Source: a virus
Lineage: Duplodnaviria; Caudoviricetes
Direction: 5' to 3' (one strand)
DNA: 64,000 nucleotides
Virus record (IMG/VR): IMGVR_UViG_3300032040_000005
Span: 1 to 64,000 of that record
Below, in pieces: positions 640 to 59,691 of the stretch. The position numbers and the translations under genes were made by a program. The notes beneath the pieces are model-generated. The model did not search any database, was not told the DNA's origin, and saw nothing but the letters and a program-made list of their open reading frames with translations. Numbering within the stretch: position 1 is the stretch's first letter; every line of letters begins with the position of its first letter.

Positions 640-3600
640 TTAGTTGAACGGGCTTAGAGCACCTTGCATCACGAGTGTTTCATCCAAAGCCCCTGGCAAA
701 TCCAGAGCACCAGTTTCAAACGGATTGTTACCCACCCGTCCGAACATACTGGAATCCTGGATCGTCGTCAGACCGGTCATGAATCCACCCAGGATGGCCA
801 ACAGAATAGCCCGTGCAGGATGCTCCTGGTACAGTTCAAGCAGCACCCGCTGGATGCGTAGGTAATACTTCGAGAACAGCACCAGTCCCGTATCGTTCAG
901 GTACTGCAACGCTTTGCTTGTGGGTACATCGTAGTTGATGAACGCTGCTTTAATAATCCGCATAGCATCCACCTCGCTCTTTTTAGTGTTCGCATTCTTA
1001 GTCAAGTGCTCGTACAACGTGTACCGCCCTACAAAGTCACTCATCTGGGTACTGCGAAACAGTATTTTGTAGAGTGGCGTGTCGTGAGCCATGTACGCTG
1101 TTTTTGCAACAGTCTTCACAGCATTCGGGACTTTAGCCGTTTTGTTATCGGCCCAATTTACCAAGCGAGACTTGTACGAAAACATATTATCCTCTGTATC
1201 AATGTCTTCCATGATGGTCTGGAACTGTCCACCGTCAATCAAGGTTTTAACTGGGTTATTCTCCAGTGCGTATTCCAGTTCCAGAATTTGTTGATCCAGA
1301 TCGGTACGACCACTGGCTTCTTTCAAGCGCGTCAATTCCAGCAGTGAATCACTGTCCGTCTGGTAGGAAAGCAAGCCATCAATCGCAACTTTGTGGTTGC
1401 GGATAAGATCCTTCATTGGGACACCGTACCAAAGCAGTAACGTCACGTTACTCATGATGTTACCCACCAGGGTCCATAGGTTTTTGATTACGTAAATGTC
1501 CTTGAGTTCCTTAACCAGTGACTGCCACACATCTTCACCGGCATGGATTTTAGACACTGCTTTGTCACCCAGGATTTTTGTGCCCAGGTGGTACACCACA
1601 TGCTCAAGGATATTGCGTTCTTTTTCCGCTAGGTCAAATGTATCGGCCATTGAGAATTTTCTGTACCCAAAGGTCAGATCCAGCAAATCATTACGCACCA
1701 TCATCCCGTTGCGTCCCCATGTTTTCAGGATGGTTCTGCGGGTCGCTTCAGGCAGCAACGCGTACTTCTCACGGATACCCGCATCCATACTGTCTGCACT
1801 GAAGTCCACGTAGATCCCAGGCCGAATGCTGTACTCAACATCGAACTGGTCTTTTAGAGCCTTTACCACCAAGTTGTTCTGAGTCTCAGACGTTGGTTTG
1901 TCGTACACAGCGCCTTCCATGGCGCCCATGACATCCTCGACACGGGAATCACGTTTCAAGATGTCGTCCTTGTTTTGTTCAGTCATGAGGTAGCGATAGT
2001 TCACGATCTCACCGTTTGGATTAACCACGGCCACCAAAGCACCATCTTTCGCTGTGGTACCCAGGTCATCGTTAAACCCTGGCTTCTCCAAATCCTGCAT
2101 GTTTTTCATGTTTGCTGTGACTTTATCCGTCATACGTTTGCGGCTCTGTACCACGCCCTCATCCGTGACCACGGATACACCGTTGTGGATGGTTGTGCCC
2201 TTGGACCGTTTACCAGAGAACGACATCACACCGGTCACATACTTACCCAGACCGCCTTCTTTCAAGACGTACAGATGTCTCACTTCCTGGTTCGTGTCTG
2301 CTGGATCTCGTGTAAGTGCTTTACCTTTACTGTAACCCGCCTTCACCAACTGAGCGCCCTGCTTCTCATTAGCGGTAACCACCTCACGGTATGGGTCGTA
2401 AATTTCCTTGGTGTAGCCTTTCTGCATCAGAGCTGGGCTACCTTGGAACAGTACATCAAGTGCCTGTTCTTTCAGTACGCGATGGTTCTGGATAACAAAC
2501 CGCATACCCTCACCGTTGTTTCGCTGCATGATCTCTTTTGTGGATTCTTGCTGCGTCATCGGTGTGTGCTGCAACGCATACAAAGAAGTCAGCATCTCCA
2601 GGATGGGCGTAGCCTGCTCCATGGTCGCTTCAGGCACCGTCATAGCATCCGGCATACCGACCTTACGCACGATGTTGTGCACGTTCAGAAGGAGTCCCTT
2701 GGTCTGGTGACCTACGGCCATGTGGTAACCCAGAGCCTGAGCCATGTTTTTATAGTAAGCCGCCTCTTTACCCACCTGGTTCAGTTCTGCTTCCAGGTCT
2801 TTACGTAAGGTCGCTTGGGCGTCTTTGTTGGCCATGAGGTCTGTCATCCCTTCGTAACCCAGTCGCGTAGACAGCGAAACGAGGTCGGTTTTCAGAACCG
2901 ATTTCGTAATGCCCTCACTCTCTGCTTTTGTCATTTCACCCAGTAAACCCAAAAGCTGCTTCTTACTGTTATCAATGCGGTGCTTGCGTTCTTGCTCGTG
3001 CTTCCCTGTTTGACTCAGGAAGTCGTGCATCTCTTGAGTACCCTCTTTCGGGCCACGCACCTCATCCACCATTTTGGCCAGGAACCCTTGCTGCTTACCA
3101 AAAGCATCAGCACGGTAATCTTCCCAGGTATCCAGCAGCACGGTGAACTTATCATCCGCTATCAGGCGCGTTACACGGCTCGATGCCCGTATGATGGAAC
3201 TGTTTGAGTTCGCCAGTGCAGGACGACCGGCAAGATTGCCTAACTGTCTACGCACGACACCACCGTTGGCCGCCGAAGCTTCTTCAATCTGATCCAGTAA
3301 ACCAATGTTTTTACGCGCCAGTGTGCGGCGTTTGCGTGACTCAATATCCACCAAACTTGTCACAAGGCGGGTCATCCGTTGCTGTCCCGTCTGCCCTTGT
3401 GCTGTCCCGTTTACTGTATCCGCAAACTGTTGGACCGCTTTGCGGTACCAGCTTTGTAATTGGTCACCCATTTTTGAACTGGCTGCCCGATTGTCTGCTG
3501 ATACATTAAAGTCCATTTTGTCAGCGAGACCTGGGTACGCCATAGCCATTGCCGCAAATCGACTCAAGTGGTTGGAACGTGTCTCACCACTGCTCTGCTC

Positions 3601-6600
3601 CAGTTTAAATATGAAGTCGTACTTGGCTTTAGCCTGGCTAACCTGTGTGGGAGTTGCGTCAACCAGTTCACCGTCAATAAACGATTCCCAACTCATCTGC
3701 TCACGAGTGGACTTGAATACCCGAACCAGATCTTTATACGCTGACGTTGTTGGATCAAGGATTTCCCGTAGGCTTGCTTCTACCTGTTCGAGAACAAAGG
3801 CTTCTTTGTCCGACAGGTCTAAGTTTGTTGCCGCTGTTTTGGAACTGAACGGGTTGGTGTCCGTTACCAGGGCGTTCAGGTACGCGTCTTCTGCACTGAT
3901 TCCCGAGGTCCGATCCAGCTCCAACTTAGTGGCCCCGTAAGGTCCGTGAAGTTTATCCACGATCACATCCATCACGCGTTGAAGACGTGGGCTGGTGTCA
4001 CCATCCAAACCCTCGTAGATCTCACGTGTGGTGTAATTGCTCACCGTGTCCAGAATATCCGGTGTCTGTTGAGCCAGTACAGTTTCGTAAGCCGCCTTCT
4101 GCTTAGGCTTAGTCGCGGCAATCACACCCGATGCGTTGTTGATCAACACAGTGATACCGTTATTCTGTTGCTCAGTGGTTGGTACACCCTGGAACACGAT
4201 ATTGCGGATAGTGTTAATAAAGGCTTCCATGCCCACGATCAACGCATTCTTCTTGGTGCGTGAAGTCATCTGGATCTTACCCAGTACCTCACGTTGGAAG
4301 CCTTCGTTGGTCAGTCCCCAAGAAATCAGTTCATCCACGCTGGTAACCGCATCTCCGAATCGGGCTTGCAGTGCTGAATCCGTTTTCACCAGATCAGCCG
4401 CTTTGCTCCGCAGAGTTTCCAACTCGTTGACCATGCCTGTGATGTTGCTGCGGTGCTTTGGGTTTGCGGCTTGTGCTGCTCGCTCTGCTTGTAGCGTGTT
4501 CGCCAACAGTACGTGCAGCAGCTCGTGAGCAACCAGCTCAACTGTCAGGTTGGATTCCACAAAGTCTGGACCTTTCAGAAATACCCTGGTGGTATCACCG
4601 ATCTGCGTAACACCGCGTACACCGCCTGGGTTACCCATCTCTGGAGCCAGGGATACGCGTGTAGACTGCTCTACCAACTCTACGACCACGCTCTCATCAA
4701 GGCGCTTGGATAATTGTCCCAGTACCTGTGCAACAGCCCGATCATTATTACTCAAGGTACGTGACTTCAACGCTGTCCGTAGAACAGGCAGCAACTCTTT
4801 CACAGTCATCACAGGCTGCGCGCGTAAGGCTTTAACCAGTACCGCATCACTGTCACTTACCGGCGTACCCAACACACCCCAAGGGGTAACTTGGCGACCG
4901 TTATACAGCGTATTCAGTAACCCCATTATTGCGGCTTGCTGCTTCGTGTCCTGTGTTACCTGCTTAACAGCATCTTGCAAGACAGTGTTCATTCCTGTGC
5001 CAGATGTCTGTGCCACTTTCCAATGCATCTCAACGGATTCTGCGACATTGCCCAGGTCCGTCTTCATACCGTCATCCAGTTTTGTGGATTCAGTAATGGC
5101 AGCAATCATATCCAGCACACGACCTACGGGGGCTTTCTCCACATCCTTGATACGTTGGTCCTGGTTTGTTAACCGTGCGTGTATTTCTGCCCGTTTGGTA
5201 TTCCGTGCTGCTTTATAGGCCTCGCCTTTGTAAACCGTCCCCAGTGCACGTTCCAATGAGCCAGTCTCCATGAATATCTTGTTAACCTGGCGCATGTTCT
5301 CAAGCTCACGTTTCTGAGCTTTTGACAGTCCTTTGCCAGATTCAACCTGGTCACGGTATGCCTGTTCCAGATTCTCTTGCAGTACACGTGAGGCTTCCGC
5401 TACACGTGCCACATTGCTTTGGGCTATGTCTTTATTGAGCCGTGTATTAACACGCTCACGGATGGTTGTGGACTGTCTCTCAGTCATAAGGACACGATCA
5501 GCGTCAGTGACGGTGTAGTGACCACCCTCGTAACCGTACTGGTTTATGATAGAGATGGTCTGCATCCACTCCATGGTGTCACGCTCAGCCTGTTCAGCTA
5601 CGGCCAGATACTCTTCAGCCATCAACGTAGGTGACTTATCCAAACCTGCCAGGAGCTTTTCGTGCTCAACACGGAACTCAGGATCTTTCTGCATTTCCGG
5701 CAACTTCTGCTGGAACTCATCCAAGGTTCTGTACATGGTTTGCATGATTTCTTCTGGGAGCGACCAACTCAACATTGCATTCAATGTTTCCTGGTTCATG
5801 GATGCCATAGCTTCTTGTAATCCAGCAGGTGTACGGATCACAGCATCGTGCACGTTCAGCATATTGACTGCTTTATACACACGAGAAATGATCGCGCTGT
5901 CCATCGCGTGAATCAGCATGATCACCGGTGAAACACCTGGATCGACTTCTTTGCTCTCACTGCTCCGGTAATCAATGGTGGTTTTCTTATTGGGATCGTT
6001 GTTAACCCCTTTAAGAGTCATACCATCGTTGATTTTACCTGGTGCGAGCGTCACTGGGCGTTTCAGGTTCACGACACCGGTGTACCGCCATTTACTGCCA
6101 TCCGCCAGATCCTGCCGCTGCTTGGCCATCTTCAGACCGGCCTGCTTATCACCACCTTTCGACATGGCTGTGTGGACTACCGGTGACATCTCTGACATCC
6201 GCTTATCCAGTTCCTTTTCATGTGCTTTCAGCAGGTCTTGGAGAACTTCGCCTGTTGCCTTGTAAATAGCCACTTCGCCCTTGGCTACAGATTCTTTCAT
6301 GATTTTCCGACGCTCAAAATTACGCGCTATTTCGTACAGTTTGAAAGACATCTGTGCAGAACCATTAAACGAGTTTCGGCGTTCTATGGTGGTACCGTAC
6401 TGCTCATCTACTGTTTCATTGATGTGTGTCCCTACCAATTCTGTAAAGGTATTGATCAACTGTGTTCTCGCGTTATCGCTGAACTTAAACGCTTTTACTG
6501 TGGCGAAGTTAGACTTGGTGGGTAACTTGTTGGCAGCAGACAAGAACTTGTTTATTTCGTTGAACAGCTTACCCGCAGCCGCAGAAAGCTCCGGCGTATT

Positions 6601-23885: not shown

Positions 23886-26800
23886 TTAAACAATGTAAGA
23901 GGACATGCGGGAATCTTCTTCCTCGTCATCATCCACTTCCCATAAACCACTTCCATCGCGGTCTGACAGGTCGCCTGTCTCAGTAGGCTTCCACGCTGTT
24001 AGTAGAGGCAACATACTGATTGTGTCTATAAAGTCATCGTGTTTGGATCGGAAACCCCCTTTGGACGCCAGCGATATTTCGTTCATGCATTCAATCAGTT
24101 CAGGAGAAGCTTTTTTCTCGATAGGGAAAAAGATCTTGTTCATCTTGAATTGCGGAACAATCACGTTGAAGCGTTCCAGCTTATTGGTGGTGGGACGTAA
24201 CCCAGGCTTACCGTTGTTGTTCTCGGACACCAGCGGGAAGTACACGTTGCGACGCATCATTTCATTCATGATCCAGGGTATGAAACCGCCCTGCTGACCA
24301 CTGACCTCAATACCCACACCCTGGGGCCGGTACTCCTGAGCCAGTCTGAACAGATCGTTCACGTTCTTGTCCATAAGCTGGCGCTTACAGATCCCATCTA
24401 CCCACAACCAGTCACCGTTGTTGTTGTAGGCCCACACACTGATCACAGAGTAATCCGACTTCTCGGACTCACTGGTTGCAAAGTCGGTGGTGATGTAGAA
24501 GTTGAAGACATTCTTGTTGTTCAGGATGTTGCGGAGTGAGTACCACATGATCTCGCTGTCTTGAACCAGTCGATCCTCTTCCGACATGATCCGCAGCATA
24601 AGCTCCTGGTTAAAGGTCTCAACGCTGCCCTCAAGCACCGCCATGTCATACGCGGCCTTCACATACTCGTAAGGGAAACGGTCTGGCCAGCTACCCCGGA
24701 ACTCTTCCTTGGTGCAGGGGAACTGCTCACACACGGGAAACACGTTGACCTGCCAGGCACCGGACTCAACCGCTTTGTACAACGGATCTTTCGCGTTGAA
24801 CGCCGTACCGGACCAGATGATCATGTTCAGCGTGGGATGCAGTGCGTAGGTCACCGCTTTCTTAACCGTGTCCTCTACGGCACCTATGACCGTTGCAGAG
24901 CGTGCATCTTCATCCGATATTAAGTCATCCAGCACCGCTAACCCTGGCCGTATGCCCATCTCTTTGGCACCACGTACACCGGTATTGTGGGTACGGAAGT
25001 ATTCCCCGGTAAGGAACTGACGCTCTTCATTATCTACCGCAATACACTGACTGGGTTCATCAGCAATGCGTGTGATTGACGCAACCGCTACTTTGTCACC
25101 TTTACGATCAAAGCGTTGTCTATCACGCTTACGGGGTAGACGGAACATGTCTTCATTAAGCCATATCTCCGTACAGAAAGGCTTTTTACACCGTTGTGCG
25201 GTGGCACCGAGAGAACGTACTAGACGTTCCGTATCTGCAAGGAGTCGTGGTGACACACTACAGAAATTGGTGCGACCTGATTTGCATACGGTCCCATCCG
25301 TATCCATAAGCCCTTGAAGCAACGCCTGGCGTTGCTCAATGGAACCACGAAAGTAGACTTCGGGAATGAACTTATCGTTACCGTGTACACCCAGATCCAT
25401 TGCCTTGAGTGCTGGGCCTAGTCTTCGGATGGATTGTGTCCACGTATTCGGATTACGCGTGTCAAACCGGCCCTTACCAAACTCGTAAGGGATGTGTTGC
25501 TGGTAGGTCGGCAGGTCGTCGATGTGGGTTGTTAATTCAACCGAGCATGAAGGCTTCTGAATACGACCGTCGCCAAGAACCACGCCCAATGTATAAGGAT
25601 CAACTGGTAGCACTTTTTCCGTGTAGTCCAGTGGCTGAGCATTCTTGACAAAGACCAGACTCTTGCTGGATGTACCACGGTGGCCCAAGTTACCTTTTTT
25701 AGTGTGGATCAGTGGTTGCTGTAACAACTCCTTGGTGGTGAGATTCTTATCTTCCCACCGTACAGTGTTATTGGGATTGGTATTGATCACTACCGAATTG
25801 ATATGATCTTCGCTGACTTTGATCGAGCGACCATCTACCAACCGCAGTTCGTACATTGGTTTAAGGAATACACCACTCTTTTGCGTGATTGAGGTTAGTT
25901 CACCATCCGCACCAAATATCCGATCACCCACCTGACACTCGCCTATCGTGGTAGTACCCATATCGGTGTACAGGACACTATCCAACGATAGAGCTTTTGC
26001 TCCGTACCCTTTTACAATGAAGACTTGCCCATCACGGTTACGGAACTCCCAACGGGTGTCCGTGAACTTGATCACAGGCAGGTACCTCATCAAGAACTCA
26101 GAGTTGTCCCTACGGAACTCCAGGTTCTTACGCATGTTCTTCACGCCGTTCTCAATGGAGTCTGACACGTAGATAGCCAGCCGTACTTTACCGAAGCCAG
26201 GTATCAAGCTGTACACCGCTATAAACAGGAACAGGTACTCACCCATGACCGTTGTGTTGTGTGTCACTACGTACTCACCCGCTAAGAACGTATACCCAGG
26301 CGAGTTAACGGACAGGCACTGACTCGGTACTTGAGCGATTGGCTCAATAGCCACCAAGGGCACCCGTAACCCACAACTGAAGTGTTGGCGCTCAGCCTTT
26401 CTGGGCAAGCGGAACAACGGTAAGTTCAGGCGTACGTTACACCGGTAGGCGTCATTCATAGGGACAACCTGAGCTGTACCACCCAAGGAAAGAACTAGCT
26501 CACGCACATCCATCGCTAGGCGATACGAGTTAGATGTAAACGCACAACACCCATTCTTATATACCGTACCATCCGTATCCATGAGACCTTGCAAGACTGC
26601 AAGACGCTGCTCGACAGAACCTAGCTTATATATCTCTGGTACGAATTTTTGGTTACCATGGCAAGCCAAGCCTAATGTCTTGAAGTGCTTACCTAGTCCC
26701 AGCAGCCCAACCCGCCCAACAGAAGGAAAGCGCTTGTCCAACAAGATCTTTCCACATTCGGTTGGAATGTGTTTGATCAAATGAGGTAGGTCATCAACAT

Positions 26801-27530
26801 GCCCATGTAGACGGCAAGACCCCACCTTTCGATCCATAGAACCATCGCCAACAGCGAGGCCCAAGGTATAGGGGTCAATTGGAAGCACCTTTTCTGGGTA
26901 GTCGACCGGCCCAGCCAAAGGAATCCAGACACGATTCTCTTTACCCTTTGGATTCTTAGCGGTTTTGTTCCGACTTGTCGTCAGCTTGAGCTTCAGTAAC
27001 TCGGACGTTGTCAGATCTCGGCGATCCAGGTAATTGACTCTTTTTCCTGCCACGCGCTTCTGGCGCTGATGGATCACGGTATTGATATGATCTTCGCTGA
27101 CCTTCAGCATACGCCCGTCTTCAAGAACCAATTGGTACATAGGCTTGTTGAAAACAACACTCTTGGCTGTCACATCGGCGGGCGCACCATCCTCACCAAA
27201 GACTTGTTCGCCCACTTGAATATTTGCAACCGATTTCCAACCAGCAGGCGTCGGCAGCATTGTGTCCCGGGCTAGTGCCTTCGCCATGCCACGGTGGCAC
27301 AGGTTCGCAATCCGTGTACCGCCCTGGTACAGCGTATCGAGCATGTAGTAATGAACCACCGGTGTAAGGTGTTCCTCACCTTCGGAACCGTTCACCAACT
27401 TAATGAACGTCACAAACTCCAATGCGAAGTCACTGGGTACATACCCTGGATTGACTTCATAACTCACAGCATTCAGGTAATCCTCTACCCCCATAATACT
27501 CTTGAACGCATCCGCTACCGGATCAGTCAT
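23886..27530 (-). CDS. terL: terminase large subunit (N4 gp68-like) interrupted by two inteins
   Basis: Walker A CHRGMAK|TT, Walker B LAVLDD, nuclease TTDFA and HDDFIDT; removing 341+337 aa of intein leaves 536 aa. Confidence 0.95.
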   Translation of the reverse strand: MTDPVADAFKSIMGVEDYLNAVSYEVNPGYVPSDFALEFVTFIKLVNGSEGEEHLTPVVHYYMLDTLYQGGTRIANLCHRGMAKALARDTMLPTPAGWKSVANIQVGEQVFGEDGAPADVTAKSVVFNKPMYQLVLEDGRMLKVSEDHINTVIHQRQKRVAGKRVNYLDRRDLTTSELLKLKLTTSRNKTAKNPKGKENRVWIPLAGPVDYPEKVLPIDPYTLGLAVGDGSMDRKVGSCRLHGHVDDLPHLIKHIPTECGKILLDKRFPSVGRVGLLGLGKHFKTLGLACHGNQKFVPEIYKLGSVEQRLAVLQGLMDTDGTVYKNGCCAFTSNSYRLAMDVRELVLSLGGTAQVVPMNDAYRCNVRLNLPLFRLPRKAERQHFSCGLRVPLVAIEPIAQVPSQCLSVNSPGYTFLAGEYVVTHNTTVMGEYLFLFIAVYSLIPGFGKVRLAIYVSDSIENGVKNMRKNLEFRRDNSEFLMRYLPVIKFTDTRWEFRNRDGQVFIVKGYGAKALSLDSVLYTDMGTTTIGECQVGDRIFGADGELTSITQKSGVFLKPMYELRLVDGRSIKVSEDHINSVVINTNPNNTVRWEDKNLTTKELLQQPLIHTKKGNLGHRGTSSKSLVFVKNAQPLDYTEKVLPVDPYTLGVVLGDGRIQKPSCSVELTTHIDDLPTYQQHIPYEFGKGRFDTRNPNTWTQSIRRLGPALKAMDLGVHGNDKFIPEVYFRGSIEQRQALLQGLMDTDGTVCKSGRTNFCSVSPRLLADTERLVRSLGATAQRCKKPFCTEIWLNEDMFRLPRKRDRQRFDRKGDKVAVASITRIADEPSQCIAVDNEERQFLTGEYFRTHNTGVRGAKEMGIRPGLAVLDDLISDEDARSATVIGAVEDTVKKAVTYALHPTLNMIIWSGTAFNAKDPLYKAVESGAWQVNVFPVCEQFPCTKEEFRGSWPDRFPYEYVKAAYDMAVLEGSVETFNQELMLRIMSEEDRLVQDSEIMWYSLRNILNNKNVFNFYITTDFATSESEKSDYSVISVWAYNNNGDWLWVDGICKRQLMDKNVNDLFRLAQEYRPQGVGIEVSGQQGGFIPWIMNEMMRRNVYFPLVSENNNGKPGLRPTTNKLERFNVIVPQFKMNKIFFPIEKKASPELIECMNEISLASKGGFRSKHDDFIDTISMLPLLTAWKPTETGDLSDRDGSGLWEVDDDEEEDSRMSSYIV
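24984..25994 (-). mobile_element. intein 2 with LAGLIDADG endonuclease (337 aa)
   Basis: Inserted at GYGAK|TGVRG; starts ALSLD, ends RTHN, +1 Thr; LGVVLGDG and LQGLMDTDG motifs. Confidence 0.92.
26256..27278 (-). mobile_element. intein 1 with LAGLIDADG endonuclease (341 aa)
   Basis: Inserted in Walker A at RGMAK|TT; starts ALARD, ends VTHN, +1 Thr; LGLAVGDG and LQGLMDTDG motifs. Confidence 0.92.
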
Positions 27531-51677: not shown

Positions 51678-51922
51678 ATCCAATACTTAATCCCGCCTAC
51701 GTTCAAATCCCAAAGAAAGAAGCTGCCACCATTTTAGGCATCAGTGTCTCTGAATTGGATCGTCGTAGAATCAGTGACGACCGCTGCCCGAATGGTTTCA
51801 AAGAGCGTGATGATAAAATGGCTCCGGTGAAGTTCCGACTCTCGGACATCTACACGTACTCCGAAGCCATTATGAACAGTGCTATTCCGGCTACTCAGTT
51901 AAAAGGTGCATCGGTCTCTTAG
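51674..51922 (+). CDS. excisionase-like winged-HTH protein (AlpA/Xis)
   Basis: IPKKEAATILGISVSELDRRR...FRLSDI; convergent with and overlapping int. Confidence 0.7.
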   Translation: MNPILNPAYVQIPKKEAATILGISVSELDRRRISDDRCPNGFKERDDKMAPVKFRLSDIYTYSEAIMNSAIPATQLKGASVS

Positions 51923-53120
51923 GCTTACCCTTACCCGTTTCTAAATAATCCAGATAATCCGCGTACCAACACATCATTTCCCGGCGCTTATCCAAATACT
52001 GTGCCTGGTTATATACCCCAGCGTCACCGCCTTCAACGTGTGCTAACTGCATCTCTACGTAGTCTTTATCCCAACGGTGTTCACGTAACAACGTGCTGGC
52101 TGTGTGCCTTGCACCGTGACCTACAAGCTTGCCTTTGTACCCGACTAACCGCAGACACTTATTAATCGTGTTCTCGCTCATCGTGGGGTTCTTAGTACCA
52201 AAGCCTGGGAACACATACTTACCCCGTCCTGACGTTTCATGCATGGTTCGCAGTTCAGCCACTGTTTGAGGTGCCAACGGGATAAGGTGATCTCGACGCA
52301 TCTTCATTTTTGCAGCGGGTATCGTCCATAAGGCGTTATCCAAATCCATATCAACCCATTCACTAAATCGTGCCATGCCTGGGCGACACGCTGTACGCAG
52401 CACCAGGCGTGTCATGGTTAAGGTGATCTGTTTACTCGTAGACTTTCTAAGGGCCATAAGGAAAGCCGGCAACTCGTCTTCTAATAGATGAGGGTGCGGC
52501 GTTTCCTGATGACCTTGTTGAGCCAGATGACGTAACTCACTTGCGGGGTTTACAGTGCAATGGCCTTGAGCCATCGCCAGTGAGAATATTTGATTGATCC
52601 AGAGTCTTACTTTACCGGCAATGGCACCGGCACCCCGGGCTTCCATCTTTGATTGGATCGCCGCACAGTCTAATCGTGTGACTGCATCCAACGCTTTGTG
52701 GCCAATGGCCGGATAGATGTCTTTGTTCAAATACAACTCATATTGATAAAGGCTACCCGCTACGCGGCCTGCCTTTATCTTACGGTCATACCAGTCTTCA
52801 GCGGCTTCTTTAAAAGTCATCTTTTCTTGTATACCCGAACCCAAGTGTACAAGATCTTCACCGTCTGAGGATTGGCTCAGCAGCTCTTTAGCATTCTCGC
52901 GGGCCAACTTACCGGAGACTCGCGGGTATCCGCCCAGACCTTTCCAGGCCCATTTACCGTTGGGACGCTTATACCGTAAGACCCAGGACTTGCCACCGTT
53001 AGTCTTCACACGGAAGTACAAACCTTCGCTGTCACGCTCCTGGTAATCCGTGGTGTCTGGCTCTAAGGCGTTGAGAACACTGTCTGCCAGGGGACGCCGC
53101 TTAATCGCTGATCGCTTCAT
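51891..53120 (-). CDS. int: P4-family tyrosine integrase
   Basis: Arm-binding N-domain GLYFRV..GGKSW.LRY; catalytic R (ACRPG), K (KMKMRR), HGAR, LAH, YN. Confidence 0.95.
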   Translation of the reverse strand: MKRSAIKRRPLADSVLNALEPDTTDYQERDSEGLYFRVKTNGGKSWVLRYKRPNGKWAWKGLGGYPRVSGKLARENAKELLSQSSDGEDLVHLGSGIQEKMTFKEAAEDWYDRKIKAGRVAGSLYQYELYLNKDIYPAIGHKALDAVTRLDCAAIQSKMEARGAGAIAGKVRLWINQIFSLAMAQGHCTVNPASELRHLAQQGHQETPHPHLLEDELPAFLMALRKSTSKQITLTMTRLVLRTACRPGMARFSEWVDMDLDNALWTIPAAKMKMRRDHLIPLAPQTVAELRTMHETSGRGKYVFPGFGTKNPTMSENTINKCLRLVGYKGKLVGHGARHTASTLLREHRWDKDYVEMQLAHVEGGDAGVYNQAQYLDKRREMMCWYADYLDYLETGKGKPKRPMHLLTE

Positions 53121-53409: not shown

Positions 53410-53434
53410 GAAAAAGCCCCCAGTAAAGGGGGCT
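53410..53434 (-). terminator. rho-independent terminator ending the tail/DGR operon
   Basis: minus strand AGCCCCC-TTTACT-GGGGGCT-TTTT; a second hairpin CGTGGGG-ATAG-CCCCACG at ~53453-53470. Confidence 0.8.
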
Positions 53435-53471: not shown

Positions 53472-53873
53472 TCAACCTGGCTTGGCTTTCATCCTGTTCA
53501 CCACGCCTTCCAGGGCACCGCCACCAAAGTAGAAAGCAGCCACAAGGGCCACCGGTGTACCGAGTGTCGCGTTGTTTAGTTGGCCTACCTCTTTAGCCGC
53601 TTGCGTTAGCTGGGCACCATAGACCGGATCAACCATACCTGCTGCCAGCATGAATCCAGCACACAGTACCCAGATGAGTACGAAGGGAATCGCAAGCACC
53701 AGCATCAACAGACGCTGTGCAATCTTAAAAGGTTCGTACCCTTTGAGCAGGCTCAGGAATCCTTTAGACTTTTCCTCATCTGTGTAGAACGCAGCATCGA
53801 CGCCATTGTAAATACCATCGGCTGCTTTCTTGATGACGTTCTCATTACCGAACAGTGTTGCAAATATCCCCAT
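53472..53873 (-). CDS. holin-like membrane protein
   Basis: YTDEEK...RLLMLV hydrophobic helices...FYFGG, a pattern of phage 3TM holin-like proteins. Confidence 0.6.
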   Translation of the reverse strand: MGIFATLFGNENVIKKAADGIYNGVDAAFYTDEEKSKGFLSLLKGYEPFKIAQRLLMLVLAIPFVLIWVLCAGFMLAAGMVDPVYGAQLTQAAKEVGQLNNATLGTPVALVAAFYFGGGALEGVVNRMKAKPG

Positions 53874-54127: not shown

Positions 54128-54222
54128 ATCGACCAAACCATGGTAGGCAATACAGCGTACATAGTGCCACCAGTTTCGCTAGTTACAGTGTTACAGTTGG
54201 ATCGGTAAAAGTGGATTTTCAT
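54124..54222 (-). CDS. 32-aa micro-ORF, translationally coupled on both sides
   Basis: MKIHFYRSNC...VWSI; ATGA overlaps at both ends. Confidence 0.4.
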   Translation of the reverse strand: MKIHFYRSNCNTVTSETGGTMYAVLPTMVWSI

Positions 54223-54812
54223 AATGCTGACGCCTGTATGAACAGGTCATCTAGTTGTGTATCTGTCAACCCCAACGCTGCACCTAATAGTGACACTAAT
54301 TGTTTACCTCTATCCACATACTGAGAGTATTCCCATTCAATAGTCGCATTGGTTTTGTCCGGCTCCGTCATAGCTGCTAACGCACCTTCCACATCTTGCA
54401 GCAAAGCGTTAACCGCCAAAGCCAGTCTGGCCTGCCTCATGGTCACCCTGTCAGGTGTTATATTGGTCGGGTAATATGTGAGGTCGGGTACATCGGTATT
54501 GACCCAGTAGTCGGCCAGTACTTTTGCCAGTTTCTTCAGCATTGAATGCTGGGCTTCATTTTCTGGGTCACCCTGTAATGAGGCAATCTCACTACCAAAT
54601 GTCGGGTAGTGTGTTTTCATAATCTCTTCAATAATGGTGTTACGATCCGACAACTTATCAACACGAGCCGTTTGGTACGTATATGCAGTCTCAGCGGTAC
54701 CCTCTACATTCGTTCGTGACAGCACCTTTTTATTAAAGTTAATCAAGAGTCTGCGACCCATGACTTGATACGTGTTCAGCTCTACTGGGGATTCTGTCGT
54801 TGAGTTAGACAT
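54219..54812 (-). CDS. DGR-adjacent / tail-fibre-associated protein
   Basis: 197 aa overlapping the RT stop; C-terminal VTMRQARLAL...IEWEY...LGLTDTQLDDLFIQA is typical of tail-associated small proteins. Confidence 0.6.
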   Translation of the reverse strand: MSNSTTESPVELNTYQVMGRRLLINFNKKVLSRTNVEGTAETAYTYQTARVDKLSDRNTIIEEIMKTHYPTFGSEIASLQGDPENEAQHSMLKKLAKVLADYWVNTDVPDLTYYPTNITPDRVTMRQARLALAVNALLQDVEGALAAMTEPDKTNATIEWEYSQYVDRGKQLVSLLGAALGLTDTQLDDLFIQASAL

Positions 54813-55764
54813 TCATTAGTACCTCTCTTCCTGGTTGCCAAAGTCCTTTATTGTTTAATGGTTTTATCCACCCCCAATAAGCGGTAATACTCATTATCCA
54901 TTTAATACGCACAGACTCCAGATATCTATATTTTATAGTAGCGCGTAGACGAGTACAGTCGCTGAAAAAGACGTACCCACAAAAATCTAAACCATTGCTG
55001 GCCAGGGATTGAATAATCCAAGTGGGTTTAATTATAAGTCCTAGTTTATTCACCTGTTGCTCAATTCTTTTTTGTGCTGACCTTAACCATTTTTTACAAG
55101 AACCCAATACAATAAGATCATCGCAGTAACGGAAGTAATACTTCACTTTTAAGTTTTGTTTTGCGTACCAATCCACAGTAGATAAAACCATATTACCCAG
55201 CATCTGGGATATGTAATTGCCTATGGGGAGCCCTTCAACACTTTCAATAATATTATCCAGCAATACGAGAGTACGTGGGCATTTTATATGACGCCGAACG
55301 CATAGCTTGCTGATCTGCTGTTTCACCGATGGGTAGAACTTCTTAATGTCCATTTGCAGATAGTAGGTAGGCCTGCCTTTCCGTATGGCTTTCTGCACAC
55401 GTCGTCGTGCGTCTGAGGTGCCACGGCCCTTCAGTGATTGAAAAGTGTCCCTTATCAGTGAACGTTTCCAGATATCACCAACAACTTGCATAATGGCGTG
55501 GTGAACAATTCGATCTGGGAAATAAGGCAGTACGTGTATCACACGAAGCTTACTGCCTTCTACCCGTTCCATAACGCGATACTCGTTGGTTTGATACGTA
55601 CCATTCATAAGTTGATCGTGTAGCTGCTGGAGGTAAAACTCCTCGTGCTTATTAACCTCCACCACTTCTTTATAATGGCCCTTACCTTTTGAGGCTTTTT
55701 TATGAGCCTCATGTAAATTGTCCATAGATGCGATTTCATCAAAAAGATTACCGTACCGTTTCAT
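54805..55764 (-). CDS. DGR reverse transcriptase
   Basis: 319 aa; FPDRIVHHA, MDIKKFYPSV, GLPIGNYISQ (DGR [IVL]GxxxSQ signature), YFRYCDD, GLDFCGY. Confidence 0.96.
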   Translation of the reverse strand: MKRYGNLFDEIASMDNLHEAHKKASKGKGHYKEVVEVNKHEEFYLQQLHDQLMNGTYQTNEYRVMERVEGSKLRVIHVLPYFPDRIVHHAIMQVVGDIWKRSLIRDTFQSLKGRGTSDARRRVQKAIRKGRPTYYLQMDIKKFYPSVKQQISKLCVRRHIKCPRTLVLLDNIIESVEGLPIGNYISQMLGNMVLSTVDWYAKQNLKVKYYFRYCDDLIVLGSCKKWLRSAQKRIEQQVNKLGLIIKPTWIIQSLASNGLDFCGYVFFSDCTRLRATIKYRYLESVRIKWIMSITAYWGWIKPLNNKGLWQPGREVLMNV

Positions 55765-55879
55765 AGCTATCCTTTAATGCTATACAGCGCCCAAGCGTTT
55801 CAGACCAACACGGTTTACTAAGCTTTTGTGGGATGCGTTTACGCCTTTCGGCGGGATTCTTTGTTTTCCAATATTCTAT

Positions 55880-55995
55880 AGCAAGCTGCCTGGCGATACT
55901 CCGATTCCGATTGCCTGAGCCATTATTCACATTGACGTAAGAAGGACTGACATTCGTACCATTCGAGGTGTTACCACCTACATGAGCTATCTTCC
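55880..55995 (-). repeat. DGR template repeat (TR)
   Basis: In the VR frame it is AAT/AAC-rich (GGNTSNGTNVSPSYVNVNNGSGNRNRSIARQLA); followed by a spacer with a CGCC-GAAA-GGCG hairpin before RT. Confidence 0.96.
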
Positions 55996-56052
55996 GTGCC
56001 TAACAAAGAACCCCTCATTTTAAGTCATTATTCTCCTTAATTATTTAATAGA

Positions 56053-59000
56053 TTATTGAATTTTGGAAAAAGCAAGCCGCCCGGCGATACCCCGATACCG
56101 AAGGCCCGAGCCATCAGTCACACCGACGCAAGAAGGACCGACATCCGCACCATGCGAGGCGCTACCACCCACAAGAGCCATCCTCCAGCCTGAAGACTGG
56201 TAGTAATAATCAGCAAACGCGGTAGATGAATTACCGCTTGAATCGGTTACAACATCACCGAGGGTATTATGCTGCACATTGCGGATATAACCATTAGCAC
56301 CTGGTGCAGCTACACCCAGTTGTGTGTACCCGACAGTGGTATCATCAACGAAGCTGGCGATGTCATTACTGACATACCATACCCGTGCATTGACGTTAAA
56401 CCCGTCGCAGAATTGCCAAGCGTTACCCCAGAAGTTTTCGATACCCCGGTAATTCATCCATGCAGTATCTCGTACAGAACTAACCACGCCACCTGAACCA
56501 TTACCAATAATATTGGATTTACCAGCGACCGAGTGAGGTGAATCTGTTTGACTGGATGACGAAGCCGGATACCCTGTGCTAACACTGTTGTTACCGGCTG
56601 CTAAGAGTGCTTGACCGTCGAACCCACCGTACTCCACAAAGAACAGCAGTTTTATCAAGGACCACTGCCAGAACGTCATCTGCGACCAATTGGAGCCCCG
56701 GTTACTGGCCAATTGTCGCATCTGTGCGCGGGTCACACCAACCATCGGATACTTACCAGATACAGAACCTAAAACATCAGCCGTGTAGTCTACTCTTGAA
56801 TCATTGTTGTCGAGGTTCAGACCATCAATGTATGTTAGACCACTGGTGTCATACACGGATGCATGATACGCACCTACATAGATCGCCTGCTTTTCGCTTG
56901 ATGGGTTGGTGTAATACCACATGTCTACAGCAGGGTCGCGTTGTAACGTACCACCGATTGCGAATGCAGGGTGCAACACAAAACCTGATCTAGGGTAATC
57001 ACTGATTTCCCGCTTAACATCACCATTAAATAGTGTGGATACCCGTACATAACACTTGGGGATTTCAACCATGACCTGACCATCGGTACCATCCAGAACG
57101 GCAGCAGTCCCGTCGGCTTTCAGCGTTGAGTCGTTCAGGCTAAGGTAATAGTTCACCGTGCCATCATCATTCAACAGGCAACGACGCATCCGTTCGTGGA
57201 TCTGTGTGACACCTGTGGAACCGGCATATCTGCTGTATACGTCTGAAGTTGGGTCCCAAACCATATTGGCAGAGATTCTTGGTTCATAACGATTATCCCC
57301 TACCAGCTGTATAACAGACGCATCCGGATACTTGTCTGCTGTACCTGATTCAGCTTCAGCAAAGGTGGCTTTCTCAACAGAACCTGCCGCCTCAGTGGTG
57401 GCTAAGCCGGCCACTTTAAGCCATGCAGTGCCTGAGTAGACCCGCACCTCGTTGGCAACCGTATTGAAGTAGAGATCCCCGGGCGTAACATTTACCGTAG
57501 GCGCTGACGCCAGTGGCCCATGATATTGGTTCTGAAACGTGGTCAGTGAGCTTGCGGCATTGGTTGCACTGGTACTTGCGGCAGAGGCCGAGCCAGAAGA
57601 GTTACTCGCAGACGTGGCGGCATTACTGGCAGAGGTACTGGCATTGGATGCAGACCCTCCGGCATTGGTTTCAGACGTTGCCGCGTTGGTTTCGCTGGTA
57701 GACGCTGCCGTAGCACTGGCACCACCCTTGGAAGCATAGTGCCGGCCCGAGAACTTACCCGTCTCAACGGCAACATCAACAGCCGCATTGGCCCAGTTAT
57801 CGGCTTTGGTTTCACTGGTGGTTGCGTTGGTTGCAGAGGTGCTGGCATTAGAGGCTGAAGTAGCTGCGTTAGTTTTGCTTGTCGCAGCGGCTGAGGCTGA
57901 ACCCGTTGCGTTGGTTTCACTCGTTTTAGAGGCCGTCTCTGACGCACTGGCCTTGGCTGCGTGATGCAGAGCAGAGAACTTGCCTGTCTCTACAGCGGTG
58001 TTTTCCAACGCTTCAGCCCACTGGTTCGCTTTGTTCTGAGACCCCAGAGCAGCGGTCTCAGAGTTGCCCGCGTTGGTTTCCGAGGTGCCTGCATTACCTT
58101 CGGAGATATAAGCTGCACTGGCAGAACCAGAAGCGTTGGTTTCACTGGTGCTGCTGGCGGTCTGTGATGCCGCTGCTGCGGTCTCACTGGCTTTAGCGGC
58201 AGTTGCTGCCGTGGTGGCAACATCTTCCGGTGCCACCCAGAAAGAGCCGGAGTAGAACTTCAGGAAATTATCCGTGGTATTGAAATACACCGCACCGGTT
58301 ACCAAAGCATTACCGTCGTTGTCCACGGTTGGGTCCGAGGCTTTATCCCCCAGGTACTGATCACCGAACTGATCGAACAGACTCTCAGCACTGTTCTTAG
58401 CCGCGACGGCACCGGTCTCTGCCGTCTGTGCAGCGGTCGCTGAACTGCTGGCCGCACTGGCGCTGCCACTGGCATTGGTTTCGCTGGTCGCAGCATTACC
58501 GGCAGATAGGGAAGCTGCTGACTCAGAACCAGACGCATTGGTCTCCGATAGAGCAGCGGCAGTCTCAGAGCCACTGGCGTTGGTTGCACTGACACCCGCA
58601 TTGGTCTCGCTCAGCGCCGAAGCAATGGCCGAGTCCTCTGACTTGATGGCGTGGTGCAAAGAAGAATACTGACCCGTCTCAACGGCCACATCTTCCAGTT
58701 CCTCTGCCCACTTCTCTGATTTGTTCTCAGATGCCAGGGCGCTAGATGCGGAACTATCGGCTGCGGTGCGATCTTGTCCAGTGGCCACCCGATCTGTAGC
58801 CGTAGCGTCGGAGTCCTGCTGCGTCACTACTCGGTCGGCGGCAGTGGCGGTTGCATCATCACCTGTGGCACTCCTGTCTATACCTGTTTGAGCTGCATCA
58901 GCAGCCGTATCCAAGGTGTCTTGGTTGGTAGCAACTCGATCCAACCCCGTCTGTACTGCATCAGCAGATGTATCAACTCGATCCAAGTTAGTTTGGAAGC

Positions 59001-59691
59001 GGTCTGCTGCTGTATCCAAGGTATCTTGGTGGGTGGCTGCTAAGTCAGCAGCCGTATCTATCGTGTCCTGATTCGTTGCAACGAGGTCAGCTCCTGTCGC
59101 CACAACAGCGTTATCAGCATTAGTTTCACTGACCGCTGACGCATCTTCGGAGGCCTGGGCAGCGACCACATTGGCGTCTGTTGCTGCTTTGTTGGTGGCC
59201 ACTTCCGCCCGATCCGCTTCAACGGCATCACGAGTAGCATACAAGGCGTCCAGAGCCTCAGCCGGAACGGTATTACCATCCAATACAAACGACCCTTCTG
59301 GTTGATCCAGTTGCACACGAACGGTCTGATCCAGTATGTCTACCAAGCTTTGCGCCTCGGTTAAAACACTGATTCGTCCGTTCAGGAGAGTGATTTCTTT
59401 CCCGTTAAGCTGACGTCTTAGGTTCAGGTAGTAGTGGCCTTGGGACAAACCCGCTGTCAGAGTTTTATCCAGAACTATGTAGAAAGTACCCAGGACCGCA
59501 TCGGCTGGGTAAATCGTAAGTGACGGGATATACAGTTCAGCGTCTGTATCAACCGTAAGCGGATTACGCTTCAGGGTGACTTCCAGACCCCAGTTGGTAA
59601 TGTCCGATGGGTTGTTAGCCTCATCGGTTACCGTAAATCGGGCTGCAAAGTCATCGCCCTGATATACTTTAAAAAGTGTCTGGTCTTTCAT
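56053..59691 (-). CDS. tail fibre with C-terminal CLec-type DGR-variable domain
   Basis: N-terminal attachment-like domain, long Ala/Thr/Ser-rich repeats, C-terminal GIENFWGNAWQFCDG...LVGG....G...G...GRL motif of DGR targets. Confidence 0.9.
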   Translation of the reverse strand: MKDQTLFKVYQGDDFAARFTVTDEANNPSDITNWGLEVTLKRNPLTVDTDAELYIPSLTIYPADAVLGTFYIVLDKTLTAGLSQGHYYLNLRRQLNGKEITLLNGRISVLTEAQSLVDILDQTVRVQLDQPEGSFVLDGNTVPAEALDALYATRDAVEADRAEVATNKAATDANVVAAQASEDASAVSETNADNAVVATGADLVATNQDTIDTAADLAATHQDTLDTAADRFQTNLDRVDTSADAVQTGLDRVATNQDTLDTAADAAQTGIDRSATGDDATATAADRVVTQQDSDATATDRVATGQDRTAADSSASSALASENKSEKWAEELEDVAVETGQYSSLHHAIKSEDSAIASALSETNAGVSATNASGSETAAALSETNASGSESAASLSAGNAATSETNASGSASAASSSATAAQTAETGAVAAKNSAESLFDQFGDQYLGDKASDPTVDNDGNALVTGAVYFNTTDNFLKFYSGSFWVAPEDVATTAATAAKASETAAAASQTASSTSETNASGSASAAYISEGNAGTSETNAGNSETAALGSQNKANQWAEALENTAVETGKFSALHHAAKASASETASKTSETNATGSASAAATSKTNAATSASNASTSATNATTSETKADNWANAAVDVAVETGKFSGRHYASKGGASATAASTSETNAATSETNAGGSASNASTSASNAATSASNSSGSASAASTSATNAASSLTTFQNQYHGPLASAPTVNVTPGDLYFNTVANEVRVYSGTAWLKVAGLATTEAAGSVEKATFAEAESGTADKYPDASVIQLVGDNRYEPRISANMVWDPTSDVYSRYAGSTGVTQIHERMRRCLLNDDGTVNYYLSLNDSTLKADGTAAVLDGTDGQVMVEIPKCYVRVSTLFNGDVKREISDYPRSGFVLHPAFAIGGTLQRDPAVDMWYYTNPSSEKQAIYVGAYHASVYDTSGLTYIDGLNLDNNDSRVDYTADVLGSVSGKYPMVGVTRAQMRQLASNRGSNWSQMTFWQWSLIKLLFFVEYGGFDGQALLAAGNNSVSTGYPASSSSQTDSPHSVAGKSNIIGNGSGGVVSSVRDTAWMNYRGIENFWGNAWQFCDGFNVNARVWYVSNDIASFVDDTTVGYTQLGVAAPGANGYIRNVQHNTLGDVVTDSSGNSSTAFADYYYQSSGWRMALVGGSASHGADVGPSCVGVTDGSGLRYRGIAGRLAFSKIQ
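56071..56186 (-). repeat. DGR variable repeat (VR)
   Basis: Encodes RMALVGGSASHGADVGPSCVGVTDGSGLRYRGIAGRLA at the target C-terminus. Confidence 0.96.

Follow-up and report, generated by a model that had tools for sequence, protein, structure and literature searches.

Phage tail fibres are familiar targets of diversity-generating retroelements (DGRs). The DGR of phage BPP-1 (mtd-avd-TR-brt, TR being the template repeat) needs Avd, which is present in about 74% of DGRs and is not a defining feature of these elements. The subject of this account is a DGR found on the minus strand of a stretch of 64,000 nucleotides of viral DNA (Duplodnaviria; Caudoviricetes), positions 1 to 64,000 of IMG/VR record IMGVR_UViG_3300032040_000005; this whole stretch is called 'the window' below. 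The element comprises a tail-fibre gene carrying a variable repeat (VR), a TR and a reverse transcriptase (RT), is free of accessory genes of the known kinds, lies in a 73.9-kb N4-like phage and is, we are confident, functional. By itself it adds little to the list of tail-fibre DGRs. It does provide a clean natural case, in which genomes identical over tens of kb differ essentially at the TR-adenine sites of one 116-nt repeat.

In the RNA of BPP-1, the template-primer duplex of TR and spacer ends in the priming A. A duplex of ~13 bp, formed by sequences up- and downstream of the TR, stops the RT, and adjacent to it are a stem-loop and then adenosines; an 11-bp Avd-binding stem-loop lies right after the TR (Handa et al., bioRxiv 10.1101/2023.10.23.563531). 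In the sections of the survey by Wu et al. (2018, NAR 46:11, PMC5758913) that concern us here, 75 of the 372 DGRs surveyed consist of TR and RT without an accessory gene, an avd-less lineage is described ('Lineage 3'), and it is concluded that Avd-independent homing exists. The layout in the window is this known accessory-less target-VR/TR/RT architecture, and its lack of Avd is a known variant because both the accessory-less TR-RT cassettes and the avd-less lineage had already been described there. The relevant parts of the survey of viral DGRs by Roux et al. (2021, PMC8144416) report that mostly tail proteins are targeted and that 50-75% of the elements show recent activity. Diversity within a sample is low there and the dominant allele differs between samples, with diversification and selection alternating.

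The repeats and the adenine signature

Read on the minus strand, which is the coding strand, TR and VR align over 116 nt without gaps. The mismatches number 22, of which 16 are A>G, three A>T and three A>C. The TR has an adenine at every one of them (22/22). The VR thus departs from 22 of the 31 adenines of the TR and from none of its 85 other bases; if mismatches were placed at random on a template of this composition, the chance that all 22 fall on A would be (31/116)^22, or ~1e-13. A preliminary description, made by a model from the letters of the sequence, had reported 116 ungapped positions and 22 adenine-only mismatches in the proportions 16/3/3, and realignment returned exactly these counts. 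It had also placed the end of the homology directly after the GC-rich sequence CGCC(A/G)GGC(A/G)GCTTGCT, as expected at an IMH/IMH* pair (IMH, initiation of mutagenic homing), and the same border was found; at the 5' side the likeness fades within a few bases of 55995. The two G/A differences that separate CGCCGGGCGGCTTGCT at the VR end from CGCCAGGCAGCTTGCT at the TR end are fixed in all three alleles described below, while the adenine sites upstream vary, and the same two A>G positions occur in the sister cassette of loci L003 and L004. In sequence the two GC-rich ends are related as an IMH is to its IMH*, with constant differences that would serve as a directionality signal.

The repeat covers 39 codons, the last of them codon 1207, near the C-terminus of the 1212-aa fibre. 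Placement of the adenines within codons is strongly skewed, with 28 of the 31 at positions 1 or 2. The TR has eight AAY codons (seven AAT and one AAC), and only one codon of the VR, AAG at 1170, could become a stop through adenine mutation. The 19 adenine-bearing codons allow ~2.7e15 protein variants.

VR and TR are 75 nt apart. The segment between them contains, at 56015-56040 (-), a Shine-Dalgarno-like AAGGAG, a two-codon open reading frame (ORF; ATG ACT TAA) and then a 15-codon ORF that enters the TR. The related loci L008, L009, L011, L012 and L015 likewise have an AGGAG ~45 nt before the TR. No second VR was found in the genome by blastn with the TR; this same search missed the known VR as well, its divergence being too great for the word size, and no dedicated adenine-tolerant scan was made.

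Natural alleles

The data from metagenome runs are assembled contigs (Logan), which give dominant alleles only and leave minor variants within a sample invisible. The 1212-aa protein belongs to a 90%-identity cluster of three sequences from public assemblies, and the three protein alleles differ only at residues 1173, 1177, 1180, 1183, 1190, 1192, 1193, 1197 and 1199. At the DNA level, nine base differences separate the window genome from L006 (a JGI sample; 13,670 nt compared) and 16 separate it from L007 (an ENA assembly; 19,586 nt compared). All 25 lie inside the 116-nt VR and none outside it, across the ~33 kb compared, and 23 of the 25 are on TR adenines. The TR itself is letter-for-letter the same in L007, though the VR of that genome is the more divergent of the two with its 16 changed bases. 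A sister cassette in a second phage behaves in the same way: its copies from two metagenomes, L003 and L004, have two differences in 11,344 bases, both in the VR and both at TR adenines.

Because the only differences from the two further assemblies of this phage are in the VR, and there nearly always at TR adenines, the element has very probably been active in nature recently; this belongs with the view that the DGR as a whole is functional. The preliminary description had proposed past and probably ongoing retrohoming. Three alleles whose 25 differences all fall in the VR over 33 kb bear this out. At least 14 metagenome runs, brine or aquatic and belonging to many studies, contain the phage; VR turnover is visible between some populations, not everywhere.

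Table 1. Positions in the window of the parts of the DGR, of its RNA and of the adjoining genes
Feature	Position	Strand	Remarks
VR (variable repeat)	56071..56186	-	Codons 1169-1207 of the 1212-codon gene; 116-nt ungapped match to TR
IMH-like GC-rich 3' end of VR, CGCCGGGCGGCTTGCT	56071..56086	-	Two A>G differences from the TR end
TR (template repeat)	55880..55995	-	IMH*-like CGCCAGGCAGCTTGCT forms its 3' end (55880-55895)
5' strand GGGGUUCUUUGUU of 13-bp RNA duplex just upstream of TR	56002..56014	-	Pairs with 55853-55865 in the minimum free energy fold
Structured spacer RNA between TR and RT, 115 nt	55765..55879	-	RNAalifold on eight relatives
3' strand of Stop-like duplex	55853-55865	-	In spacer
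Hairpin CGCC-GAAA-GGCG followed by AAAC	55842-55853	-	In spacer
Helix P2	55822-55836 with 55787-55796	-	Three-part helix; encloses invariant UUAGUA (55816-55821)...GAAA
Strand UAUAGCA	55778-55784	-	Pairs with TR 3' end UGCUAUA (55877-55883); adjoins RT start; closing A invariant
DGR reverse transcriptase, 319 aa	54805..55764	-	RVT_1 E 7e-13; phrog_1423 E 1.7e-93
197-aa ORF	54219..54812	-	Overlaps RT stop by 8 nt
DGR target gene, 1212-aa mosaic tail fibre	56053..59691	-	PHROG tail and tail-fibre matches
Shared cassette (CLec module, VR, TR and RT)	54818..57219	-	83% nucleotide identity to L003 (blastn borders)

Reverse transcriptase and target fibre

The best sequence match of the RT in the PDB is 8ub7, a Bordetella phage DGR RT (E 3.8e-34), in which IGSLTSQ aligns with IGNYISQ of the window protein and YMDD with its YCDD. 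The frame is open and holds PIGNYISQ as well as YCDD, and identity to the RT of BPP-1 is 33%. On these alignments the enzyme can be assigned to the DGR type of RT, with the catalytic YxDD and the [LIV]GxxxSQ motifs kept. Reference bacterial genomes contained no RT above 47% identity, and a host or prophage copy was not found there.

The target fibre has an N-terminal anchor (residues 4-109), fibre repeats (240-770) and a C-terminal module (~800-1212). The last 415 aa define a family with 908 matches at E<1e-5, joined to many different N-termini. Compared with the PDB, the profile of this family finds TaqVP (5vf4), the CLec-fold DGR variable protein of Thermus aquaticus, at E 2.6e-5, with the VR segment inside the alignment. 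An AlphaFold model of the module (pLDDT 84, pTM 0.89) submitted to Foldseek again gives TaqVP first (E 6.5e-11, TM-score 0.44-0.49), followed by PvdO, FGE, EgtB, Mtd and TvpA. The module is thus predicted to have a C-type lectin (CLec) or FGE-like fold with the VR in its C-terminal part, an assignment supported at the level of the fold. The preliminary description's view of an intact RT diversifying a CLec module stands on both counts, the first through the open frame, the two motifs and a DGR RT as best PDB match, the second through profile and fold, which both put TaqVP first. Pfam has no match for the fibre, for the 197-aa ORF that follows the RT or for a 133-aa ORF further downstream.

RNA structure around the template repeat

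Between TR and RT the RNA of eight relatives folds into a common structure of 20 pairs. Of the cells at these pairs, 92% are paired, compared with 28-48% when partners are slid, and 10 of the pairs show compensatory changes. Judged from this alignment, the spacer RNA has a conserved, covarying nested structure. A duplex that brackets the TR is present at the same relative place, with different sequences, in 17 of 17 loci examined with duplexfold, the window's own included; among 15 loci the cognate strands pair better than non-cognate ones (-17.8 versus -12.8 kcal/mol).

Other approaches returned nothing. RNAalifold applied to 17 diverse spacers gave no structure, the MAFFT alignment being poor; when the alignment was extended to the region before the TR, the bracketing duplex did not emerge, the alignment being likewise poor. 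Single-sequence folds of the TR-spacer RNA were no better than those of shuffled sequences, and no Rfam family matched in 55600-56300.

The 13-bp bracketing duplex is a candidate counterpart of the 'cPRT Stop' duplex of BPP-1, and it is plausible, by analogy, that the template-primer duplex and the stop duplex of BPP-1 both have counterparts in the window RNA. The Avd-binding stem-loop of BPP-1 would have none, nor is there room for one, and this fits the lack of Avd.

Related loci and the gene behind the reverse transcriptase

A TR/VR pair upstream of the RT was found in 58 of 80 related viral loci, and in nearly all of the 58 the mismatches are confined to TR adenines or largely so. Without exception, close relatives (RT identity of at least 50%) have a VR-TR gap of 46-112 nt and a TR-RT spacer of 105-117 nt. 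More distant relatives have either a layout like that of the window or a VR-TR gap of ~350-500 nt, and most of these longer gaps hold a ~113-aa member of phrog_19665 ('family B'). By Pfam, family B is distinct from Avd; it is absent from the window genome and may be a non-Avd DGR accessory. Its members (~100-115 aa) are placed between VR and TR, the usual place of avd, in L028-L035, L039, L051, L055-L057, L061-L063, L066, L068, L070, L077 and L083, and behind the RT instead in L005, L018, L021, L025, L040 and L067. A likeness of family B to the Phi29-type single-stranded DNA-binding protein (SSB) is a single Atlas lead; SSB occurs in 44% of a neighbouring cluster.

In the window, the RT is followed by the 197-aa ORF, which is composed of two parts. 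Its N-terminal ~105 aa ('family A') are 44% identical to a 105-aa ORF behind the RT of L003, and a hidden Markov model of family A finds matches directly behind the RT in L009-L014; the Yersinia phage fEV-1 has a family A domain in the same place, in its g30, with an hhalign probability of 95.7. Its C-terminal ~85 aa are a widespread domain of small phage proteins and match phrog_6034; some of the BFVD structural neighbours of this domain are named tail-fibre-assembly-like or DUF4376. The model of the whole ORF has a pLDDT of 94.5. Comparison with solved structures (PDB by sequence, Foldseek, and VIA wide with a best Z of 4.6) gave nothing significant and no Avd-like match. A structural match to gp043 of crAss phage cr50_1 has no profile support and remains a lead only.

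Two roles can be considered for this gene, and the balance tips slightly towards the plainer one, in which it is a tail-fibre assembly or chaperone gene only, travelling with the C-terminal module of the fibre, and the RT acts alone or with a host factor. This competes with an accessory role of family A and with nothing else. It is favoured by the C-terminal domain, which is common to many small phage proteins, some of them of the tail-fibre-assembly-like or DUF4376 kind, and by the 83% nucleotide homology with L003, which ends at the RT stop codon; Wu et al. (PMC5758913) caution, in the part of that work considered here, that genes conserved beside DGRs can be plain phage genes. Against it, family A abuts or overlaps the RT stop in the window, in L003, in L009-L014 and in fEV-1, down to 45% RT identity and across phage types, and the C-terminal domain is missing from its copies in L003 and L009-L014. 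That the family A domain is a helper of an Avd-less RT is a possibility, to be entertained tentatively; the 197-aa ORF may equally be a fibre-assembly protein.

Is the element still active?

Several observations weigh against a functional DGR. A search with PF05635 through the whole 73.9-kb genome gave no match to Avd, although a very diverged Avd could escape it. No hairpin or cruciform follows the VR, and the DNA fold of 55996-56110(-), at -6.1 kcal/mol, is weaker than that of shuffled controls; such a structure downstream of the VR is a feature of BPP-1 and is not universal among DGRs. In four brine or aquatic runs, each from a different study, the contig that dominates over the VR has the window's sequence unchanged. 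Finally, the two allelic differences that are off the TR adenines are one and the same T>G at 56089, seen in both L006 and L007. It is synonymous, in the third position of codon 1201, where the TR has T, and is the sole VR difference of its kind. Either the RT rarely misincorporates away from adenines, or this is an older polymorphism that lies close to where cDNA transfer has its 3' limit; both are conceivable.

Some of these points would suit a relic, that is, a DGR that diversified its VR earlier and is now inactive, for example through loss of Avd, so that the alleles are old standing variation. No Avd is found anywhere in the genome, and the same dominant VR haplotype recurs in the four runs, whose studies are dated 2019-2024. 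A relic is nevertheless most unlikely. The three genomes have no differences outside the VR over 13.7 and 19.6 kb, and since they are identical there, the VR alleles are younger than any ordinary substitution in ~33 kb. RT, TR and structured spacer are intact and conserved. The whole lineage is without Avd in the usual position, yet its VRs have diverged at adenines only in dozens of loci, and VR-only polymorphism is found in the sister cassette as well. The VR alleles could also be thought assembly chimeras with the co-occurring phage, which is ~6-fold more abundant and has a homologous cassette of its own, given that k-mers are common to both phages, that contigs break at 55035-55053, 55798, 55955-55984 and 57121-57130, and that the L006 contig ends 31 nt beyond the stop codon of the target gene, but the odds of this are slighter still: the VR and TR of that phage differ from those of the window phage at many non-adenine positions too, whereas the alleles differ from the window only at TR adenines and by the one T>G, no allele-specific base simply copies its VR, and the L007 VR lies within an unbroken 73.9-kb contig.

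A functional DGR would work in the window as follows. The tail-gene operon would be transcribed from the minus strand, and the RNA across the TR and the 115-nt spacer would fold into the conserved structure. By analogy with BPP-1, the spacer may prime reverse transcription in cis and the bracketing duplex may stop it; the RT would copy the TR to cDNA, misincorporating opposite template adenines. The cDNA would then replace the VR in a homing reaction directed by the IMH, the GC-rich end setting the 3' limit as it does in BPP-1. Up to 19 codons at the CLec-module tip of the fibre would be re-randomised. The likely consequence, again on the BPP-1 model, is a change in the host surface ligand that the fibre binds, and with it in host range.

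Host phage and origin of the cassette

The host genome is 73,935 bp long and has direct terminal repeats. A 3698-aa ORF matches phrog_2206, 'virion RNA polymerase' (E = 0), and RNA polymerase II (phrog_2051), portal and capsid also have matches; by these features the phage can be classed as N4-like (Schitoviridae-type). N4-like phages are a group studied as strictly lytic. The present genome has a tyrosine integrase, at window 51891-53120. IMG/VR labels two of the nearest N4-like relatives, L178 and L209 (records G007 and G021), 'provirus'. Together these labels and the integrase suggest that the window genome is not the only temperate one among N4-like phages.

A search with a positive control found no DGR RT in any of 16 nearest N4-like contigs, whose portal proteins are 50-70% identical and six of which have a completeness of at least 90%. 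Of the fibre, only residues 4-109 or 360-546 have counterparts in N4-like relatives. The cassette has its closest counterpart in L003 (IMGVR_UViG_3300031953_000013; L004 is 3300032392_000020), a complete 56.9-kb phage that co-occurs in the same brine metagenomes at ~6-fold higher depth. A search with a positive control detected no virion RNA polymerase in the L003 phage, which is taken to be unrelated and not N4-like. Contigs of the L003 phage end at exactly both cassette borders in four metagenome runs. The cassette common to the two phages also fragments the Logan contigs of both. Because an unrelated, co-occurring phage has an 83%-identical cassette and the nearest N4-like relatives are without an RT, the cassette was probably acquired horizontally.

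In checks that were not exhaustive, the literature yielded no DGR described from N4-like phages, and among the 60 listed of 87 GenBank phage records with a related RT no N4-like phage was apparent. Megablast of the 5.5-kb region against GenBank phages gave nothing. The element places a DGR beside an integrase in an N4-like phage, 16 of whose nearest relatives have no RT. That its cassette is common to unrelated, co-occurring phages points to modular transfer of a fibre tip together with its diversifier. The covarying RNA and the conserved post-RT domain make the element a compact Avd-less model. A broader proposal would join all of this, namely Avd-less retrohoming with a differently wired RNA (the partner of the TR 3' end lying beside the RT start), a previously undescribed ~105-aa family A helper and the first DGR recorded for N4-like phages, its cassette taken from a phage of another kind that shares the brine community; that every part of it holds is doubtful.

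Elsewhere in the genome, a strong terminator-like hairpin (seven pairs, six of them G-C) followed by a T run lies at 53415-53434 (-), after the 133-aa ORF (53472-53873(-)); it probably ends the tail/DGR transcription unit just ahead of the integrase region. A promoter scan gave matches at chance level. The large terminase subunit (window 23886-27530 (-)) is 1214 aa long and has its PHROG terminase matches in separate stretches. Further matches of this protein are to LAGLIDADG_3 (E 1e-13) and, at weaker scores, to Hint and homing-endonuclease families; it probably carries one or two inteins.

Comparison with known systems

The window element resembles that of BPP-1 in the family of its RT, in adenine-specific differences between TR and VR, in the GC-rich IMH/IMH* pair and in the position of the VR at the 3' end of a tail-fibre gene of CLec fold. 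It differs in having no avd and no room after the TR for the 11-bp Avd-binding stem-loop, and in the wiring of its RNA: the partner strand of the TR 3' end is at the far end of the spacer, by the RT start, whereas in BPP-1 it lies ~50 nt after the TR. The hairpin after the VR is also missing, and BPP-1 is not N4-like.

The Architecture A1 DGRs of Wu et al. (2018, PMC5758913), as presented in the sections considered, match the window closely, with target and VR, TR and RT on one strand and without avd, HRDC, MSL or CH1. Family A behind the RT is a difference, not being among the accessory genes named in those sections. The population pattern given in the relevant parts of Roux et al. (2021, PMC8144416) fits the window phage, which has one dominant allele in four runs and other alleles elsewhere; no N4-like host phage is named in those parts.

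TaqVP (5vf4) is the best solved match of the C-terminal module of the fibre, and its VR too is C-terminal. Sequence identity is ~15-17%, and TaqVP is a bacterial protein, whereas the module of the window is the tip of a 1212-aa phage fibre.

The closest GenBank phage is fEV-1 (LT992259; g27-TR-g29-g30), with an RT 45% and a fibre C-terminal module 43% identical to those of the window and with the same architecture. Its TR (4283-4391) and VR (4094-4202) differ by 25 mismatches, 25 of 25 at TR adenines, and g30, the N-terminal part of which is family A, overlaps the RT stop. The cassette of fEV-1 (L168) spans 2419-6056 and contains the fibre g27, the RT g29 and the family A protein g30; a short annotated gene, g28, sits on the TR. 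The main text of the fEV-1 paper (PMC8309999) mentions neither 'reverse transcriptase' nor 'DGR'. Different from the window phage in being a 38.6-kb dwarf myovirus and not N4-like, fEV-1 is an isolated phage that, to judge from its genome, carries a complete DGR of the window-type architecture. With this cultured relative at hand, the priming and control of Avd-independent DGR reverse transcription could become testable.

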